Part shown: positions 6,868-19,350 of the stretch, in pieces
How the letters are laid out: each line of letters opens with the position of its first letter
Position numbering within the stretch: position 1 is the stretch's first letter
Virus record (IMG/VR): IMGVR_UViG_3300035522_000061
Location: 64,001-95,552 of that record
DNA length: 31,552 nucleotides
Direction: 5' to 3' (one strand)
DNA from: a virus
Lineage: Duplodnaviria > Heunggongvirae > Uroviricota > Caudoviricetes
Program-made: the position numbers and the translations under genes
Notes under the pieces: model-generated
The model's input: only the letters and a program-made list of their open reading frames with translations
The model's database searches: none
Told to the model about the DNA's origin: nothing

Positions 6868-9800
6868 TTAACAATTTTCTGTATTAATAATTATTAAACC
6901 TCTCTTTATTAAATTATTTAAAATTCCTACAATCTATGCCACATCATTAGATCTTAAACCTGCAATTGCATTAATTTTTAAATTTGCAAAAGGAGTTTTT
7001 ATGCAACCATAATCATTATAATTCTAAATTCTATTATACTTTATGGCATCATTTTCTTTCTAATCTGCATAATAATCAACATCTGGAACTAAATCTTTAG
7101 GACTTCTATATTGTCCTTTATATTTACGTTTATACATAATTCTGCCATTTATGTATTCTCTGACTATATCCTCATTATGACTACCTTCCTAAGTTTCAGA
7201 AATTACAGGAGCAATTTTATAACGCGCATCATCCATATTAAATCCCCATTCTTCTAACTCAGCTATAGATTCTGGCATTTTAGCATCCACAAAATCTAAA
7301 TCTCCTACATATTTCATAAATGATTTAATAATAGAATCATTTTTTATTATGCCTAAGAAGTTTCCAAATAAAGTAGTCAATCTATCAGAACCAAATTTAT
7401 TTTTATTAACTACTAAATTATATAACATAAACCAATCCGATAAAGGTCTCCCGCCTAATTCATAATTTTGTAATTTAATAAAATCACTTAAACATTCTTG
7501 ATATTTACCTTCATTTTCAGCTGTAGAAACAACATTCTACATATCGAGATTTAATCTTAAAAATCTTTGATTCTCATTATTTAAGTCAAATACTAAATTC
7601 CTTATAAATTTATTGTCCATAGGAAATTCTTTCTTCACTACCTTACCATCTACAACGTCGGAATAATAACCTTGTTTTAATTCTGAAAATAACTTTTCTT
7701 CTATTAATCTTTTAAAAGACCCTCTACTATATTCAGAATCTACTACTATATGATCAAATTCACTTGTAACTGTTTGATCCTCCCAGTTAAAGTCTATTAT
7801 TTTATCATCCTTAAATATAGGATATTTAAATTGCTGCTCATTTAAGAACTTTAATATTAAAACATCATCAACATAATCAATTAATTTTTTTATTTTAAGA
7901 TCGTCAATAACATCATAGTCATCAAATAATTTTGCAGTTAAATTTTCAACAAGGGCAGTCTTTTTTATACAAGTCTATTCAAAAGTGTAGACAGCTTTAA
8001 GAATATCAAATATAGATTTAAAATGAGGTAATTTATCAATTATGTCAAATACATTCCAAGTTCCTTTTATTAAATTATAATAATCGGAAGTAGCTTTACG
8101 ATATCCGTTTTGATTATTTAACCATTTCTAAAAACTAAAAGTATTTACAATTCCTAAATCTTTAGCAGTAGTCAAAATTGTTCTAATTTCTTCTTCTGAA
8201 TATTTAGAATTTCTATCTTTTAATGTTTGTACTAAATTATTAAAATAATCTTCATTTTCAAACTATTTAGCACTTATTGCAAACATCATTTCTTTATTAT
8301 GTACTATTTTATTAATTCTAATATTTAAAGCTATTAATTCTTCAATAGAAGTTGGAATACCCTAATTAAATCCTAATAAAGTAGATCCCAATTCACTTGT
8401 TTCAGTAGCTAAATTATAAACATGCTCAAACTCTTCTAAGTCTGCAATATAATCAGATTCAGTTAATCCAGAATCCTTAACCTTATCAACTAAATTTTCA
8501 ATAAAATCAGATAATGCCATTATTCCATTATTTAATTTAGACTTAGTTGCTTGCTGCGAAGTATCTAAGAAATCAAATAATTCCTAGTCTATTTCTCCAG
8601 ATATTTTAGCAAAGAAGAAATCTTTTAATAATTCATCAAAGTTATATTCTTTTGGAACTAATTTAGATTCTGAAATTTCAGTTTCTGCACCCTCTTCATT
8701 TTTCATTTTCTTGGTAATAGTCTAAGTTTCCATTCCATACCCAGCATCATGTAATGCTTTAGAAACTTTAGCATTAAGAGCTGCAAAAGCTTGATTATAT
8801 AAGGCTTGTGATACATAATTTCCATATTCTTCATCAAGAACTTTAGAAGTACCACTTAAAAACTATTTATATGGAATGTGCCCTCGCATCCATCTTATAA
8901 CCTTATTCATATTTGTTTTGTACAAATATTCATCAAACATATTTACGTTATTAAGATCATTTGCTATAGATACAACAGGACTAGTCATGAAACTAACTAT
9001 ATCATTAATACTGAACCCCATCATAATAAGATGTAAATAACATTTGGCTAAATTAGTTCCAGCATTAATCTTCGCAAGAATAAGCTCCTTAGCATTATCT
9101 GTTGCCGCAGATAATAATTGACTAATTAAATCGTCTGCATAAATACCATTTTCCTAAATATTTCTAACAGCCTCAATTAATTCCTTATTATAAGCTTGCC
9201 ATGTTTCAGTTTTATTTTCAATATCTGCATCTGTGATATTATATTTGGCTCTTAACTCAGCATCAATATCAGAAGCTGCATTAAAATATAATCTTAATTG
9301 TTCGTTATTTTCGAAATTTATATTTGCGATAGTATTCTTAGTGAGGGACTACATATTACCAGTAGATCTTCCTTGTATTCTATTAAAAGTCTAATTAAAA
9401 TACATATTTCTAAGTCTTATCGGATCTCCAGTTATTAATCCTTCATTCCAATAGTGGCTAGTATTAAAGAATACTTTTTCTCCAACGGCTGTAATACCAA
9501 TAACTCCTTTACCTACCATATTTTGTTCTTGCATTAAGAATTTAGTAAGAGGATTCATTAAAGTCATTCTTTCAGATTTACTACCTTTAGGACTTTGTTC
9601 TGATGCCTTACGTATAGAAGACATTGCAATTGGAGAATATGCCTAGTCCATATTTCTTAAATTCTAAATAATATTAGAAATTGAAGAAGAAACAGAATTT
9701 TTTAAGCATCTCTAAATCATATTAGGAGTTATTTCTGTATCCTGATGGCTTTGTAAATCATTAACTATATCTTGAGCTATATTATCGTCTACAGTCCATG

Positions 9801-12800
9801 TTATATATTGATATTGTTTACCCTTAGAATAAGTAATAGGTTTATCTTGTAAAACTCTAAGCAAATCAGCTTCTGCTCTAATCTTTTCTACTTTAGTTGT
9901 TTTAGAAGCAATTTTACTAATATAATCTGAAATATCAAAGCCAGTATCGCTTTTTACATATTTAACACCTTCTGGTATAGGTAAATATTCAGAAGCTCTA
10001 AGAGTATCTATAGAGGAATAATCAAATAAATTACTCCATCCTAAATATTTTCCATTATCATCAAATTCATATCCCATTATATATGCTTTATCAATATCCA
10101 GTATACCCTATGTCTTTCAACATAAGCTCGACTATATCATCACTTGTTATCAAGTGTCTCGCGCTTCGAAACAGCACTATGCTGTGCAATGAATTCTTTC
10201 TTAGTAGAACTTTCTCGTATTTTATATAAAAGAGATGGAACTTGTTCAATATATGGTTTTACTATTTTAATAAATTTATCAGAATCATTGTTAGTACGTA
10301 CTGAAATAGAATATAATTTAGATTTTTCTATAAAAGGTCTAAATTCTATATCCCAGACATCTTTAAAGTACTCTATTATCATCTTACATGTTTCTTCATT
10401 GACACATGTGGATATTTTAATACTTCTTTGAATTGATCCATTTCTTTGTTCTGATTCATTTATATTAATAAAACCATCATCCATAAACCATATGGCAAGA
10501 CCTTGAGCATCCAGCCAATTCAATAGGTTTCTTGTAAAGGTTTTCTTTGGAGTATACACCGAGCGTCTTAAAGCTTTAATAGTGGAATGTAAAGATATTT
10601 GAGAGTATAAAACACCTTTACCTTTATTATATCCGCATGTAGATATATACTCCTTAATTCCATTATTTTTTATACCGAGTTTATTAAGTAATCCAACTTT
10701 CCATTCTAAATATTCTCGTTGCTCTACAGAATGAGAAAGTTTAAAAACATAATTACTAGAGATTGTGCCATCTCCCAGTAATAATGCTATTAATAATCTT
10801 TTTTGTTCTTTACTAAGTGATTTTTGAATTTTTCTTGCCATTTATTCAATAATTTAAATTAAACATTGAATAAAAGTTCTACTCCCTTTCGGGATAGTCT
10901 GTGAACTTTCATCCTTGCAAATATAGTAAATATTTTATCAATTGACTAATCAATTTATATAAATTTTACCTAGGATGCTTAGCTGCGGATTGTCTAATTT
11001 TATATACTTTTTACTATACCAATAGTAATTAATTATTGCCATTAGATGTATTTCTACTCTAATTTAGTATATATAAACTTAAAGAGTTTCCCGCAATTCA
11101 CGAGATTTTATGACTACAATATTTTATCTAGTTTAACTAGAAGGGGTTATGTCATACTACTCTGGTATGGTAGTATCAATAGTCAGAACCCTAAAGCCAG
11201 GTCTGCCAATGGCTTACATAGCATATATTCTTGCTACTCTACGTAAAAGCTACTGCTTTCATCTACATAAAAGACTGTAAAGTCTAAGCAGGGATACGAG
11301 CAGCTGTAAAATATAAAGATTTCAAGAAAGAAGAATAGACTTCCTCTGCAAATTGTGAATAATAATTTACTAAAGCTGCATTATATTTCTTTGTATCTAT
11401 ATTAATATGATCATTTTTTATTTTAGCTGGTTTTAAATATTCTTCTAGAGTTTCATTTAAAAATTCTCCAGCTTTTCCAGTAATGTTTATATGAGGAATA
11501 ATACTCTTAATATGGTCAGCTGATGATGTATACATAGAATCATTAAGTCTTATGCCATTATAATTATTCTCATAATACATTTTAGTCATAATACTTCCAA
11601 TCTATTTATATACATCATTCATAAGTTTATCTCTGAGAGCTTTTACTTTCTAGTCTTTATCTAATTTCTAATATTCTTCTGAATCTGTAAATCCAGTATC
11701 CTTTCCAAAGGCTGATAACATATTCTAAATATTAAAATGTCTTAGATTATAGGTTATAGGATGATTTCCTTTAACTTCAACTATCTAATAGTTAGAAACA
11801 TATTCTTTATATCTATATACAGCGCCTTTATAGTATCTAAGTTCTGGATCTACAATCTCAGTATTATCTTTAGCACTATAAAATTTACCTTTTTGATAAA
11901 CTATATCTTTTGTCTTTATATTCTTACCTACTTTAAATAAAATCTAATTATCTTTTGTGGTAGCATATACTTCATTATTTTTTTCTAAAGTATATTTCCA
12001 ACCAATATTTCTAGGTTTAAATACATTTTCTGGATCTACTTTAGGAGTTTTAAAAGTAATGTAAGTATGTTTACCGCTACCGGTAGTAAATGCCATATCA
12101 TAATGTTTGGAAATAATAGGAGTAATTCTTCTAGGTTTAAAATAATTAGCACCGAAAGATTTTAATTCGGCTAAAGATCTTCCAGAAGTATTGTACTTAG
12201 AAGCATACATATTAGAAATTACTAATTCTGCAGCTTCGTTTTTTAAATTATATATTTTTCTACCTTTGTAAAATCCTTTTTCTAGTTCATCAAACATTTT
12301 CTAAATTTCACGTCTATTCTAAGTAGCATTAAAATTAGAATCTTCTCTATTTAAAAATGACTACACTACTGGTTCTGTTAAGAATACATTAGTAGAGACT
12401 CTATGTGTAGTAGCCTTAGCTAAAGTCTTCAATCCTCTTTCTTCTTCGTAGTAAGTATTTTTACCTCTTTCTACGATAGGATTAACAGTATTTATTACGA
12501 CTGCATAAATTCCTGGAACTTTGCCATCCTCTAATTTTTTCTTAAATATTTCCCGATTTCTTTCAACCCAAGTATTGAAAGTATCCTTACCATATTCTAT
12601 ACCAAATATATCTTTAAAGAATTCTTCATCAGTTTTGTCCTAGTAACCATATCTGGCTTTTCTTTCTTTTAATGTTTTTCCATGACCATTCTTTAAATCC
12701 AGTTCTCCTTTTTTATTTGGAATTTCTTGCCTAACATTCTTTTCGTCAATAGTAAGATCTTTCCAATCATTATTCTATCGACGCCCATTAGACATAATTT

Positions 12801-15800
12801 CTTTTAATTCCCAATAAAGTTTATTCCAGTGGGCAAAACCTTCCACATCCTAACCAGTTCTATTCTAACCATCTACATACTAAATTATAGAATATGGCTA
12901 TTTGGCTACATAAAACTCATCCCCAACTTCAGGTGCCCCAGATCCTTTAGTTTTAACAGCACTGTCGAAACCTCTAGAATAATCAGAATTAGAACCGTGC
13001 CAATATATATCTTTTTCAACACTATTGGGATAAATACTGCGAATGTACTGAGCATAATCTTCATTTGTTGCATTTATTTCCTATAGAGTAGTTGCTAATT
13101 CCGGGTTTTGCTACATTACTACTCGTACCTAATCTAGCGTATTCTAACTTATAGATTCTAAATTAGGAGTTTCAGACTATTGCTAAAGTGCAAACCAATT
13201 TTTAAATTGCTCAATATCCTATGTGGTTCCTAAGAAATGCACATTCTCTTTCTTATTATTTAAAATAACTGCTACATCAGATCCAAATTCATTATCAGTT
13301 TGTTTCCCTAAAATAGCATCATTTGGAGCTTTATCTTCGTCATATTCAAAAGATATTCTAGCAGGAGCTAAGTCTCTAGCCTATGTAACATTTACTGCAT
13401 AAGATATGTCATCTTCAGGATTAAGTTGTCTACCAATTAATTTCTAGATAAAATTTCTAGTAGTTTCTTTTCTATAAACTCCTGTTATATCATTATTAGT
13501 ACGCCCCTCAAAGGCATAATAATTATATGGATCATCAAGTCTTAAAGTAGTTGCATATTCACCATTTATTAAAATATCTACTATATCAGTAGGCTAAAAT
13601 TTAGTATTATCAAATGTTGCCTTCTTCCATTCTTTTTCCTAAAAAGTATGTAAATAAGCAGCCACTAAATTTTTATTATAAATAGCAATACTTTCCTTAG
13701 AAGGGTCAAAATCTCTAAAAAAAGATTCTTTACGTTGTAACTATCTAGCTTTTTTTAATACATCATCAAACTATTCCTCATTTCCATTATACTTAAAAAT
13801 CTAAATAATTCCATATCCCGGTACCATTACACACCCAGATCCTGGAAATTTACGTTTAACGGATTTTTTATTTAAATTAGAAATAAATGTAGGAATGATC
13901 TAAGTAAATAAATTACTATCACTAAGAGGTAACTTAAGATTATCTAATGTATGATCACTTGTTAAATTAAATCTTTTCTTAATTTCCTATACTATAGGTG
14001 TCGCTAAATCTACTTGATCTACACGCTATTTATAATTATTTAATAACGTTTTACCTATAATATCATACATTTCAGATTTAATAGCAATAGTAGGTAAATC
14101 ATTACTTTTCGCTCTAATATATTTAACAGCAGCATTAATTTCTTCTTCAGATGCTTTGGTGCATAAATATCCTAATGTTCTATATACTTGCTTAGATATT
14201 CCATGTAATCGACCCCCAGCTTCCAAAGCTGATATTACCTGAGTAAACTCAGTCATTTGAGCATCGTCAATATCGTGGTCTGCATCCATTTGAATTCCTA
14301 ATCCATTAGAATTTAAAGTCATATACCTTAATTTAGTCTAACCTTTCCAAGCCTCTACACCATTTATATTTGCAGTTCCATTTTTAACAGCAGACTAATT
14401 TGCGGCATAAGAAATCATCATATCCTTTAAAGGTTGATAATAAGTGCTCTAACTCATAATATCACTATCGGCATTTTCTTGTCGTATAGTTACATTATTC
14501 ATGAATCCTACAACTGCATATGAAGAAACATCTGAATATTTAAGAACATTAGTATCATTATCATCTAGTACTCGTTCCATAGAGTAAATACCTCCAAGAA
14601 CATTAAATAATTCAAATAAAGAATTTATATTATGAGTTCCTTTAACTTTCGGAGAAATTCCTCTAAATTTAAGATGATTACTATCAGCATCAAATCTATG
14701 ATATACTTTAACAGGATCTCCAGAACTTACTCTATCACCACTTATATTTACAGCAAATTCTTTAGTATAATAACCAAATTCATCTAATCCAAAATCAACG
14801 ATTCTATAATAGCTGCCATTTTCCTCATAGAATAATTCTCTACCTGCTAATATATCCTAATAGAAATCAATTTTAGTAAAGCCATTCTTTTTATATCCTT
14901 TAGAATTAACTAGATCAAAAGGAACTCCCTTATCATTATTCCAGGTTACCTGCCCATCCTCTCCAACTGTTGTCCATTGTAAATTAGTCATTTGCTTAAA
15001 CAAATCATACAATTTAATATCCGAGTTAAGAGATGTTCGCATTCTTTCATTTGTTATAGTAAATGTTGCAAATTTAAGAAGAGTTGCGGACATTGTTCTA
15101 GTATCGTAACTATGCCAAATTGGTTTCTTATCGACTCCAACTTCCTAATCTTGTAAACCTCTATTTTCAAGAATTGATACAAAAGGATTAATGTACGCAG
15201 AACCATCATGAGCATCTTCAGTATCCGAGTCACCTCTAAAATTAAATATCTTAGCTTGGGTATCTTTAATAACAGCTACCTTCATTTTAGCTGGAACTCC
15301 ATTTAATACATTCTATTGTATATACTACAGAGTAGCAGGAATAATTACATTACGTTTTAATTGAGTACCTTGTGCTACAGCTTCAATTTTAGTAATAACT
15401 TTATCATATAATGGTTTTAAATCTGAATGCTATTTTACCCAAATTAAATCCTTAAAATTATCCTTAGCTTCATATTTTTGATAAATATTTCCATCAAGAG
15501 CATATAAATTCTTATTAAATTCCTGAATAATATTCTATTTAATATTGTCAGAATAACTAAGTTTTGCTCCCATAGGTAATACATTAATAATATTTTTTAT
15601 AAGAACTCCATTTAAATTAGTTCCATCTAATGTATAATTACCTATACCATCAGTTGTCAATACTGCATTTCCTTCATCAGTACTTAACTATATTTCAGTA
15701 TCACTAATTTTTGTTGTTTTAATGTCATTAGTATTAACTTTATTAAATTCAAAATTAGTTCCAGTAGTAAAAAATTTAAAATACTGAGGACTATTCTAAG

Positions 15801-18800
15801 GATTAATACCTAATTTTAATAACTCTGAAGTATAATTAATTTTAGCCTTATCTGGATGAGCAATTTCGGAACCTGTTAATTCAAATCGTAAATTATTAGC
15901 CAGAAGAGTATCAGTAAAGAAATATTTTTCTAATAAAGGATTTAATTCTATAGTATCATTTTCATTATATTCAATTTCGGAACCTTGATAAATATTCGCA
16001 CCATTTACTTTAGCTAATATTAATTTATTATGATATATCCAATTATTCCTATAATGTTCATTTTTAGTTACTGTTGTCGAACCTTCGATCATTTCTTTTT
16101 TAGAAAATACTTCATCAATAATACGAGAAATAGGATTACTAGTTATTCCTTTTCTAATATTGGGATCGTTATCATCAAAATAAGATACATAGAAATTAAC
16201 TCCTGAAGAAAGTAAATCATTTAAAAAATTAAACTGTTCTCGTTTAAAACGATTTACCAAAGAATTTCTATCCGCATATAAATTAGTTGCATAATGATAT
16301 AAAAGTTCATTAAATTTACAATGTTCCCCATTTTTTCTATAATGAGTATCTAAAATTAATGATATTCCTTTTGAATCAGCTAAACTTAATAATTGCTCTT
16401 CTGAAACAGTATTTAACCAAGAATTAACTTCCTCCAAAGAAGCATCTGGTTTACCCATTACATTTTTTAAATCGTTTAGTATATTATTATAAGAATTTAT
16501 ATAAGCCTAACCTACCGTGTCCTAGTATAAATCAATTAAGTTATCACTAGACATTTCCCATATTGATTTATTATCATAAGACTTATTAGGAGCTTTAATT
16601 TTCTTATTAGCCTTAATAGCATAAGTAATAAAAGAAGTTTTATCAGAATAAGTTGTAGGCTATATCAATATAGTTTCATGTAATTTATTTTTAGTGTTAC
16701 CAAATTTATCAGAATTTAATTTAGACTATAAATAATTTCCATAAAAATTCTAGATAATGGAGGAATAAAACAACTCAGATGCCTTCATATCTTTAACACT
16801 CTTTTTTATACCTGTTCTAGATTGTGCATCCTAATTAAGTACAGTTTGTGCAATTAATCCATTGTTTTCTGTAAATAATAATGGCGTAGTAGCCTATCCA
16901 TTCTATTCTTGTTCTGCTTTCTAATACTAAGATAAATAGTATTTTATATTTCCACCTAAAAACGATACTCTACTATTAGCAATTTTATTATTGTTAATAT
17001 CATTAGTAGTAGATTTAGAAATGTCCCCGTTTATTTGAGACTCTATATCGGCTAAATTATCTATCCAAGAATCACTTGTTCTAACAGAAATTAATTTTGG
17101 GATTCCTAAAGTGTTACTTAAAAAGTTTTTATATTTTTCATACGAATTAAAATTCAAATTTCTAAAAGGCAAATACCCATCACTACTTTTTAGAAATTCA
17201 GTAAAATACATTTTATTAGGATATTTTCCTTCTTTCAATTTTACATTAAATCTGTGGTACAAATCATTTACTACAGCAGTTCTAAATACACTTCCTAAGA
17301 TTTCTTCAATGTATAGATTTTTATTAGCGTCATATCCTTTATAGAATAACAATTTAGTTAATCCATCTTTTGATAAAAAATCAGTTCCTAAATAATCGTC
17401 TATTAATTGTATAGTATCCCTAAACAATTTCTCATCAGAAGACAATGCAGAAGGATTATTTCCTAATTGTAGTATTCTATTTATAGAGGATTCGGAAATT
17501 AAATCTATAGTAGAATCTTTTTGATCAAATATTGTATTTAATCTAGGATTTGAAAAAGTTATTTTAATAGGTTTGGAGGATAAAATACCCATATCATTCT
17601 TAGTAGTTCCTGTAATGTAAAAATCCCCAACTTTAATAGAATATGTATGACAATCGTGTCTTCCTAATCGTTTGGACTCTTCGATTGACATATCTTCATC
17701 TATAAGTTGATATTTATCACATAAAGCTTTTCTAAGAGCGTCATTTTTAGTTATAGAATCGTATTCACTATTAATTCTATTTATTACATTATACTAACCT
17801 TTTCTAGCTGCCCCCTTCTTTTTGGTAGTTACTTCTACCATATTAGATTCTTTAGAATACACAGCTTGAGTATAAGTAGAATCCATGGTTCTGTCCATTA
17901 CTCCTGTAATGGCATCTACTACAGAATAACCATTAATTGTAAAACTATTCTTAAGAGCTTCTATTTCAATTCTTCTAATTGAATTTTCATTATTAAGATC
18001 AAAAACATATTTAGCAACTGAAGTAAGTATATTAAGATTAAAATCATTAATTCCGGCAGCTTTTAATTTATAAGCCATTTCAGGTTTTAAAATTTCCTAA
18101 AATATTATTTTACTATATACCTACGGATCATTATGAAAATTTTTAATTGCTTTCTACAGAGTAATAGCATTAGACAATCGATCGGCATTAACGAATAAAT
18201 CTTCTTTAGCACGAGTAAAACTTCCTATAGAACAATATCTATTTAAAAATTTATTTTCGGTTGTTGAATATATTGGAATAGTACTGATTGCTAATTTTGA
18301 AAATTTGCCGATATGATCTAAAGCATTGTTTTTATCGTCGGAAGTTTCCCAACCTTTTACTTTATGTTCATCATCTTTAGCAAATCTGTATTTTAAAAAA
18401 GAAGAATCCATTTCAACATTATTTAATCCGGAATCACTTAATTCTATACTTCTTCCTACAGCATCTTTTAACATGTCGTCAAAATAGATTAAATTAACAT
18501 AAGAATTTAAAGCATCATAGAAGCTATCAGAATATCCATTTAGACGTTTTCTCCAACCTTCTGTAACTAAATCTTCAAGAGTTCTGTTTTCCTAATCTAT
18601 TTTTAAACCTTCGTCTTTAACTTTTTTTAATTCATTGTAGAATTGATTTAAAACTTGTAAATATCCTTTCTATAGTTCACCGTCTTCATTATATAATTCT
18701 TCTCCAAAATTATAATTCGGATTGATAGACTTTAAATAATTTACAATATTTTTAAAATACCTATTTTTAATGTCACATATAGCATCATTTAAATCCGCTC

Positions 18801-19350
18801 GTGTTCTAATAAGCTGCCTATTGTCTACGTCTACAACAGTAACTTTAGAAATATCTCTTCCAAATTGTTCTACTCTATAATCATTTGCTTTAATTACCGT
18901 ACCATAATAATCCTCTACTATATCTCTTAGTTTCTAACTTAATCGATCCTTTTCATTAGGAAAATCTTCAAGATTTTCAATTTCAGGTTCTTCCGGATCT
19001 GTTTCAGTTTTTATATCCTCTGCATTTAATCCAGAATCAGTAATAAAGTTTTCATTTATAGTTTTTAAAAGAGAATCTACATCTACACTTTTCTACAATA
19101 CATCTCTCCATTTTTCAATTAATCCTGTTAAAGTTTGCTATAATAAAGGAATAGACTTTAAGTATTTCTAAGTTTTATTTGTTTTATCTCCAAATTCGAA
19201 AGCGACGGCATCACTTTTAAGAGCATTAATTATTGCTCCATATACTACATCAACTCCTTTACCCTTGTTTTTCCTCGTTGCCGAGCTTAGTATAGATACC
19301 AAGCTCGGACTATGAGTATTATTAAATGTTTCTTTTATACAGTACCCCAT
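6868..19350 (-). CDS. Gene D: giant single-chain virion DNA-dependent RNA polymerase (two-barrel, crAss type); join of exon 1 (19350-11179) and exon 2 (10098-6868), ~3800 aa
   Basis: ATG at 19350 (MGYCIKE), TAA at 6868-6870 (...INTENC*). Splicing restores RIPAQTLQSFMQMK...WQTWLQGSDY|DIDKAYIMG, the DxDxD metal-binding motif. Other motifs typical of this RNAP family: KRNVIIPAT, DAHDG (15202-15216), SAVKNG, GIQMDADH, RKFPGSG and SAATDNAKE (9085-9111). All ORF-track fragments from 19168 to 7189 share one frame. Confidence 0.92.
10140..10841 (-). CDS. Intron-encoded LAGLIDADG homing endonuclease (two-motif, LAGLIDADG_2-like), 233 aa
   Basis: Motifs LLIALLLGDGTI and GLAIWFMDDG. Lys-rich and intact from ATG to TGA. 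It lies between intron elements R and S, and its 3' end overlaps intron hairpins. Confidence 0.93.
   Translation of the reverse strand: MARKIQKSLSKEQKRLLIALLLGDGTISSNYVFKLSHSVEQREYLEWKVGLLNKLGIKNNGIKEYISTCGYNKGKGVLYSQISLHSTIKALRRSVYTPKKTFTRNLLNWLDAQGLAIWFMDDGFININESEQRNGSIQRSIKISTCVNEETCKMIIEYFKDVWDIEFRPFIEKSKLYSISVRTNNDSDKFIKIVKPYIEQVPSLLYKIRESSTKKEFIAQHSAVSKRETLDNK
10841..10874 (-). promoter_or_regulatory. 10-bp RNA hairpin occluding the homing endonuclease start codon
   Basis: mRNA UUUAUUCAAU-(14 nt)-AUUGAAUAAA forms a perfect stem (10874-10865 / 10850-10841). Its last base is the A of the AUG. Confidence 0.55.
10918..10925 (-). promoter_or_regulatory. Candidate Bacteroidota sigma-A -7 promoter element upstream of the homing endonuclease
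   Basis: TATATTTG(C) matches TAnnTTTG, about 75 nt upstream of the HEG ATG, inside the P6 extension of the intron. Upstream TTG elements sit at non-canonical spacing (13 and 25 nt). Confidence 0.4.
12412..13326 (-). other. In-frame 305-codon insertion in the RNAP: ADP-ribosyltransferase-like (ART-PolyVal-like) module with permuted motif order
   Basis: Translation: PNDAILG...GSDVAVIL...NVHFLGTTQDIEQFKNW, then QNPELA...YAQYIRSIYPNSVEKDIYWHGS (H at 12997-12999)...GSGAPEVGDEFYVA...GIYAVVINTVNP...GLKTLAKA. Confidence 0.6.

Follow-up and report, generated by a model that had tools for sequence, protein, structure and literature searches.

ADP-ribosyltransferases (ARTs) of the ART-PolyVal family (PF18760, Tox-ART-HYD2-like) are found in giant, presumably injected proteins, in which canonical copies are strung end to end in tandem arrays of up to 12 copies; their active site combines a His in strand 1, a Tyr in strand 2 and an Asp in strand 5 (H-Y-D), and they have been predicted to act as injected effectors (Iyer et al. 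2017, PMC5512222). The N4-like polymerase of Roseovarius Plymouth podovirus 1 (CBX87992.1), which is packaged in the virion and injected, is fused to a member of this ART family, whose predicted role at the onset of viral transcription is read as similar to that of Alt (PMC5512222). The Alt protein of phage T4, an ART of the R-S-E (Alt/VIP2) clade, is packaged in the head, injected with the DNA and modifies the host RNA polymerase together with other proteins. Polymerases of the crAss type have likewise been reported to be packaged and ejected and to transcribe early genes (PMC7886860); gp66 of phi14:2, as far as that source cites its description (Drobysheva et al. 2021), is a giant protein of the transcription block with the RxPxxxxxS...DxDxD barrel and is reported to be a virion component transcribing early genes. 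Here we analyse a window of 31,552 nucleotides, positions 64,001 to 95,552 of the IMG/VR virus record IMGVR_UViG_3300035522_000061 (Caudoviricetes), in which the gene for a putative crAss-like virion RNA polymerase carries an in-frame insert (Table 1). We find that this insert is a complete ART-PolyVal-type domain in which the order of the parts is circularly permuted, and that it is nested in a hairpin of the polymerase.

The relationship of the insert to known ARTs emerges from profile comparisons. A region search with the insert retrieved 451 large proteins at E <= 0.001, many of them on contigs of ~100 kb and many annotated with PF18760; the PF18760 match in these relatives falls just downstream of the module homologous to the insert, so that a long ART is followed by a canonical one. 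The long module also gave weak phmmer matches (E 1e-9 to 1e-3 against 1.8 billion proteins), and eight of the ten that were scanned match PF18760 at E <= 0.01, six above its cut-off. When an alignment and profile of canonical small ARTs was assembled from these weak matches, hhalign joined the long subfamily to it with a probability of 99.8% (E 2.8e-28), covering both halves and skipping ~120 residues. The two alignments have in common the NPEL helices, the (Y/W)HG(S/T), G.FY, (I/L)N..NP, ND(A/G)I, xH(I/F)LG(S/T) and DIExFK motifs and an acidic residue ahead of the VxV strand. Because of the phmmer matches, the shared motifs and the hhalign alignment with PF18760-positive canonical proteins, the long module is, on sequence grounds, a relative of ART-PolyVal: kin of PF18760, of the H-Y-D type, and a long subfamily of its own. 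The ART identity claimed in the first-pass annotation, which had been made from the letters of the window alone, was thus recovered by profile search. The ~120 skipped residues form a helical sub-insertion after strand 2, which is missing from the canonical small ART-PolyVal proteins and may be a target-recognition subdomain. In the long-subfamily alignment it occupies columns ~130-260, following the Y-x10-Y pair, and has many invariant residues (W..KLWWELKE, R..IPNK.G.F, GK.L...K..YGY, TF..W).

The window's copy departs from its family in the order of its parts. On the coding strand, NDAILG, NEFGSDVAVIL, VHFLGT and DIEQFKNWF (~13326-13192) stand ahead of NPEL..., YWHGS, EFYVAKQ...QY and IYAVVINTVNP (13113-12412); these positions and the swapped order, as first claimed, are confirmed in the translation of the minus strand. 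The opposite order had been assumed to be the family norm, and this agrees with more than 100 relatives in which the C-segment follows the rest. In BLAST alignments with ~115 relatives, the counterpart of insert residues 41-307 comes first and that of residues 4-47 begins two to nine residues further on, i.e. the last ~45 residues of the canonical domain (NDAILG/SDVAV/HFLGT/FKxW) come first in the window insert. Only two other polymerases, P0006 and P0007, share the window's order. The profile built from canonical small ARTs likewise finds two matches in the window genome, with the C-half (model 148-209, E 7.7e-8, window 13341-13153) upstream of the N-half (model 21-107, E 7.8e-16, window 13143-12862) on the coding strand. 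Joining the two ends of the insert gives GLKTLAKAPNDAILG, compared with GLKTLAAKNNNDSILG in the sister clade and GLFT.A...NDAILG in other relatives. This bears out the earlier suggestion that the joined ends would restore a natural ART order; the cut therefore lies in a helix-loop and nothing has been lost, the new ends falling within a once-continuous element (..GLKTLAK/xxNDAILG..). Judged by these sequence matches, the order swap is far beyond chance, and the insert is a permuted variant of ART-PolyVal rather than a standard member, as its strands do not follow the canonical order.

In BLAST, four relatives seemed to cover the permuted insert from end to end with a single alignment. These alignments are an artefact: there is no duplicated C-segment, and the KAPNG...FKxWFGDW head responsible for them shares only the end motifs KAPN and FKxWF with the first 47 residues of the insert. 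Outside polymerases (P0008, P0012, P0016, P0055 and others), the long ART stands almost always directly before a canonical PF18760 ART (...FK.WL..N..SKVVDENGEP.VVYHG[ST]), and a KAPNG..S.L...FK.WFGDW head often stands ahead of it. Both the head and the second, downstream ART are absent from the polymerase insert.

The boundaries of the insert are defined by polymerases that lack it. The minus strand of 12412-13332 is open when TAG is read as Gln and in frame with the open reading frame (ORF) at 11176-19350, as the first-pass annotation had it, and the insert accounts for 307 of the 2724 residues encoded there. With the 411 residues after the insert as query, we collected 122 polymerase homologues whose alignment is anchored to the left and to the right of the site. 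The gap at the site is ~0 in 119 of them, and ~305-307 extra residues are found only in the window's own cluster and in P0006 and P0007. Close relatives with an empty site read ...NLAPARIRWKY-TDANGVT-HTVNIFDTAPVR..., that is, Tyr, seven residues and His, and the window without its insert (FEY-DEDKATT-HRV) has the same length; two distant GenBank relatives, MT835470 and MT835492, are likewise collinear across the site. The expectation that removal of the insert would leave a plausible polymerase segment, collinear with ART-free homologues, agrees with these empty sites. Since they are collinear and of equal length, the insert occupies a hairpin turn. In P0006 and P0007 the junctions read QY-EAPK/EENDAILG... 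and ...TLAK/SKT-H, and a reading common to all three copies consists of turn residues 1-4, an insert ending in ...TLAK and turn residues 5-7. The window's identical-protein cluster has 11 member sequences, and the two other clusters come from independent assemblies with the same junctions. A near-repeat encoding K-A, TAAAGCT at 13333-13327 and TAAGGCT at 12418-12412, had been put forward as the bounding element; it is present in the window and is not conserved in the two orthologous inserts, and by itself carries little weight.

The predicted active site is intact. His2118, Tyr2147, Tyr2158 (eleven residues after Tyr2147) and Asp2025 are invariant in 27 of 27 relatives. The first-pass annotation had taken the Asp at the acidic position as a reason to doubt activity, a reason that falls away given that Asp is the norm in this H-Y-D family (PMC5512222). 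Of the family columns, 37 of the 39 invariant and 46 of the 49 near-invariant ones are conserved in the window insert, the two altered invariant residues being a change of G to N and one of F to L; in P0006 and P0007 all 39 invariant columns are kept. Together with the spread by recombination described below, the intact H-Y-D site and the purifying conservation argue that the nested domain is probably active and useful.

Structure prediction gives a compatible picture. The AlphaFold2 model of the insert is confident, with a predicted local distance difference test (pLDDT) score of 88.7 and a predicted template modelling (pTM) score of 0.88, as is that of a canonical relative, P0016 residues 119-425 (pLDDT 89.8, pTM 0.86), and the list of secondary-structure elements in one model becomes that of the other when rotated, in line with the permutation. 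Compared with the PDB by VIA-align, the model of the canonical relative has ARTs in nearly all of the top 50 matches (Z up to 6.3, 123-139 residues, 3.9-4.9 A), headed by tankyrase 1 (Z 6.3, 123 residues, 4.5 A) and including PARP2, exotoxin A, cholix toxin, PARP1, NatT, diphtheria toxin, MbcT and ParT. The Z scores of this predicted model are moderate, but its list of matches is nearly pure ART. Foldseek gave no match in the PDB at E <= 0.001 for either model.

The history of the insert can be followed in its relatives. With the three permuted copies re-permuted for alignment only, a maximum-likelihood tree places them in one clade (support 99/97) nested among modules of canonical order; their sister group is P0009 and P0010 (support 86/79), both of canonical order, and the branches of the permuted clade are long (0.48 for the window insert). 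The canonical order is therefore ancestral and the permutation arose once; by this tree it is an old and single event. The polymerase backbones of the three insert-bearing genes form no clade. With 100-120 residues on each side of the site excluded, approximately unbiased (AU) tests, for which the groups were chosen after a first tree had been seen, reject the union of the three backbones (p 1e-4) and that of P0006 with P0007 (p 0.002). Sliding identity between P0006 and P0007 is 47-77% along the gene but 89-97% around the insert, and P0007 is 83-93% identical to the insert-free P0262 along the gene but 71-77% around the site. We therefore conclude from these comparisons that the insert, with short flanks, was transferred from one diverged polymerase allele to another through homologous recombination within the adjoining polymerase sequence. 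P0009 and P0010 are distant crAss-type polymerases with a GGDFDID motif, TAG=Gln coding and a LAGLIDADG ORF just downstream. In P0009 (loci L004:4211-12910 and L005:2899-11598) the long ART lies at residues 1528-1838 in canonical order, and the ARTs of both proteins are located ~60-250 residues upstream of an apparently empty hairpin, by a weak motif-level alignment. Given this separate location, ARTs would have entered these polymerases at least twice.

How might such an order have arisen? We regard as probable an account in which, taken as a whole, the insert is a nested permuted ART derived from a tandem array and serving as an injected effector. The tandem array is a likely source because the internal joint of the insert resembles the joint between array copies. 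In the insert, ...HFLGT..DIEQFKNWF is followed by ~26 residues and then NPEL...; in P0163, a true tandem array of canonical ARTs, ...QIHILGS..DINMFKNYV is followed by 17 residues and NPEL..IGT.., and a single continuous alignment of P0163 covers insert residues 16-163, including the joint of old C-terminus and old N-terminus (E 3e-7). A one-unit, out-of-register piece taken from a head-to-tail array of this ART would account for the swapped order, for a linker of native type and for a length of exactly one unit. It may have been excised between neighbouring copies as a unit-length circle and integrated by a single crossover at a microhomology of one or two codons, or it may have been produced by duplication and subsequent trimming. 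The new termini, formerly adjacent residues, would fit a tight turn without linkers, which is probably why the permuted form is tolerated at this site. Natural circular permutants such as some DNA methyltransferases and swaposins are ascribed to tandem duplication. Like them, the insert is a unit-length, out-of-register excerpt of a repeated domain with its old termini joined by a native-like linker; unlike them, it is nested in a host protein, and its canonical relatives, arrays and empty sites can still be observed.

The same order would also result if a canonical ART had been inserted into the polymerase, duplicated in tandem within the gene and trimmed of its first N-part and last C-part, with neither a circle nor an outside array involved, and the data do not separate circle integration from such a permutation in place. 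A complete domain would be kept at every intermediate step, and the sister clade of P0009 and P0010 is itself embedded in distant crAss-like polymerases, has the canonical order and shares GLKTLA. We nevertheless consider this course unlikely: the ART of the sister clade appears to lie upstream of the hairpin rather than in it, the 122 polymerase homologues show neither a canonical nor a duplicated ART at the hairpin, and the length of the insert matches that of a single unit to within a residue. It is similarly improbable that the domain is folded but non-enzymatic, acting within the polymerase as a structural spacer, as a sensor of NAD+ or ADP-ribose, or as a decoy. The long branches of the permuted clade, the two substitutions at invariant positions in the window and the absence of the second canonical ART that follows the module in most relatives would suit a domain of this kind, yet His2118, Tyr2147, Tyr2158, Glu2021, Asp2025 and 83 of 88 conserved columns are kept among lineages only ~65% identical, the P0006 and P0007 inserts have lost none of the invariant columns, and selection strong enough to spread the insert to other backbones through recombination points to a benefit. 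That the stretch is a selfish element such as an intein or intron, or an assembly chimera, and has no place in the mature polymerase is scarcely credible, even though the same gene holds a group I intron and the phage group is rich in introns and inteins (PMC7886860): it is in frame, open in the phage's own code and homologous to a protein domain over its whole length, and its junctions recur in independent assemblies. An intein was specifically rejected, as the N-end reads K-A-P and the C-end ...L-A-K-A/T, with no His-Asn, and the Pfam scan found no Hint or intein family. An intron, for which no Rfam search of the insert was made, is rejected for the reasons of frame, code and homology just given.

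Several observations weigh against the account of a nested permuted ART taken from an array. The Pfam hidden Markov model (HMM) of PF18760 has no match at E <= 1 on the insert or the genome; in Pfam scans, neither the insert nor the whole protein rose above chance-level matches such as TINF2_N and XPC-binding, and a sequence search of the PDB gave none for the insert. With Foldseek and VIA, the latter showing no clear fold, the permuted model finds ARTs at no more than Z 2.2-2.4, because these aligners depend on sequence order; the ART fold of the window's own copy is thus a prediction from homology to its canonical relatives. No tandem array of the long subfamily itself occurs among ~150 relatives, which have one long ART and then a canonical one. 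The flanking microhomology is so short that it carries no evidential value, the K-A near-repeat being reduced to one Lys per junction in P0006 and P0007, and the choice of groups in the AU tests was made with a tree in hand. As for the host protein, neither the single polymerase sequence nor a 16-sequence profile matches the phi14:2 polymerase or any PDB entry, and the polymerase, its pieces and the insert have no match in PHROGs. Because no sequence tool ties the protein to the phi14:2 enzyme or to a PHROG family, the grounds for identifying it as a two-barrel crAss-like RNA polymerase are its motifs, its gene context and the literature. Extreme divergence is a known trait of this family, and its beta-prime-like barrel pattern, RxPxxxxxS...DxDxD (PMC7886860), is present in the window polymerase.

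The polymerase gene itself is split. The C-terminal part of exon 1 reads ...ARIPAQTLQSFM...LQGSDY, and the next large frame opens with DIDKAY; removal of the region in between restores ARIPAQTLQS...LQGSDY/DIDKAY, which is contiguous in relatives. Unsplit relatives of 3352-3354 residues have GSDYDID uninterrupted and end in ...TENC, as exon 2 does. The group I intron model RF00028 matches the intron region twice below its threshold (31.6 and 20.5 bits), and the LAGLIDADG ORF of this region has no in-frame TAG codon. In a comparison of the window with P0003, P0006, P0007, P0261, P0264, P0273, P0274 and P0282, split polymerases stop either at ...LQGSDY or six residues earlier, at ...SHWQTW, and unsplit forms exist too. 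The introns thus occupy two different sites, separated by six codons. The spliced window polymerase without the ART is ~140 residues longer than the 3352-residue unsplit relatives (by comparison with P0262), and part of this excess seems to be placed around residues 1185-1290 of the window protein, P0001. Six close homologues (P0263, P0274, P0276-P0278 and P0280) have a precomputed match to the HD domain PF01966 and are 200-400 residues longer; their ART hairpin site is empty, which suggests that another enzymatic domain was acquired at a different place in the same polymerase. In tblastn searches of GenBank phages the polymerase has just two relatives, both unannotated, and the insert has none; a piece of the polymerase gave no usable match in the ESM Atlas.

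Compared with phi14:2 gp66, insofar as the latter is described in the citing source, the window polymerase has no detectable sequence similarity, is TAG-recoded and carries both an intron at DxDxD and the ART insert. Read with translation table 11, the window contains hardly any long ORFs, while TAG=Gln reveals a row of giant genes on its minus strand; exon 1 has 67 TAG codons. TAG makes up 68% of the Gln codons in the insert against 57% in the remainder of the gene, and GC content is 32.5% against 27.7%. The heavy use of TAG, taken in the first-pass annotation as a sign of origin in or adaptation to a recoded genome, is therewith upheld. Adaptation of the insert to the recoded code is complete, and its composition tells nothing about the donor. 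The 95.5-kb record is ~53% complete by CheckV, and neither Pfam nor the canonical-ART profile found further ART copies in it. The sequencing runs listed for this DNA comprise only two DNA runs at a small share (0.05-0.06 of words) and no RNA run. The genome belongs to a recoded group of human-gut phages that is widespread but uncultured.

Table 1. Features of the split polymerase gene and its nested ART-type domain (positions in the window)
Feature	Position	Strand	Remarks
Exon 1, crAss-like virion RNA polymerase gene	11176..19350	-	2724 residues with TAG=Gln; ends ...ARIPAQ...LQGSDY before the rest of DxDxD
Host hairpin, first strand and first half of turn	13333..13365	-	PARISFEY-DED
In-frame insert, circularly permuted ART-PolyVal-type domain	12412..13332	-	307 residues; P0001 residues 2007-2313
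Junction common to three orthologues	12415-13329	-	one codon inward from each end
Former C-terminal ART segment, now first	13192..13326	-	strands NDAILG, SDVAVIL, VHFLGT, then helix DIEQFKNWF
Glu2021 of NEF	13288-13290	-	invariant
Asp2025, D of SDVAV, strand 5	13276..13278	-	predicted catalytic acid (PMC5512222)
Linker from old C-terminus to old N-terminus	13114..13191	-	like the inter-copy linker of tandem arrays; pLDDT lower (74)
Former N-terminal part	12874..13113	-	NPEL helices, strand 1 YWHGS, strand 2 with Y-x10-Y pair (EFYVAKQ...QY)
His2118, H of HG[ST], strand 1	12997..12999	-	PMC5512222
Tyr2147, G.FY, strand 2	12910..12912	-	partner Tyr2158 at 12877-12879
Sub-insertion of ~120 residues	12517..12873	-	mostly helical; marks the long ART subfamily
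Strands IYAVVINTVNPIVE then GKNTYYEEERGLKTLAKA	12412..12516	-	new C-terminus; cut in the helix-loop preceding NDAILG in canonical order
Host hairpin, end of turn and second strand	12382..12411	-	TT-HRVSTNVF
Group I intron splitting GSDY/DIDKAY	10099..11178	-	carries LAGLIDADG endonuclease ORF 10140-10841
Exon 2 of the polymerase	6868..10098	-	starts DIDKAY; ends ...TENC like unsplit relatives

By analogy with the crAss-type polymerases described so far, the window polymerase would be packaged in the virion and ejected into the host. The nested ART, in parallel to T4 Alt and to the ART fusions of N4-like polymerases, would then use host NAD+ to ADP-ribosylate a host target, protein or nucleic acid, at the start of infection. 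For this function T4 Alt is the working model, although Alt belongs to another clade and is a separate protein that is not permuted. The N4-like fusion differs in that its polymerase is of the single-subunit, T7-like type and its ART is, by description, one of several domains in a polyvalent polypeptide; the window enzyme is of the crAss type with two double-psi barrels, and its ART is internal and permuted. Relative to ART-PolyVal at large, with which it shares the motif set, the insert is set apart by the permutation, by the helical sub-insertion, by escaping the Pfam HMM and by its nesting in the hairpin of another enzyme. One could go further and regard the permutation as adaptive, the loop cut providing adjacent termini for nesting, so that the ART would act in cis on nucleic acid or the transcription complex rather than as a free Alt-like modifier, and would mark host DNA, RNA or the host polymerase at the site of early transcription. 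We think this extension quite unlikely to be correct.

In L006:1-15088, from an abundant crAss-like lineage with the standard code, P0097 (1695 residues, starting with the long ART module) directly follows a 4907-residue protein with NADAR (PF08719) and SF1-helicase matches, which offers a lead on the kind of substrate. The NADAR family has been linked to the removal of ADP-ribose from guanine.

The prediction of injected ARTs and of ART fusions to N4-type virion polymerases dates from 2017 (PMC5512222), so that the family, the idea of an injected ART and the fusion of ARTs to virion polymerases are already known. Full-text literature searches returned no description of an ART in a crAss-type polymerase, and a single-phrase search no report of a circularly permuted ADP-ribosyltransferase fold; the permutation, the nesting in the hairpin of a two-barrel polymerase and the documented spread between alleles appear to be new. 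Order-dependent tools such as the Pfam HMM and Foldseek miss permuted domains of this kind. Public data still show the canonical relatives, the arrays, the empty sites, the one permuted clade and its subsequent spread, making the insert an unusually complete and traceable case of natural domain shuffling and a worked example of the movement of effector domains into injected proteins. For the widespread but uncultured group of recoded human-gut phages that carries it, the nested domain represents a candidate host-modifying enzyme.

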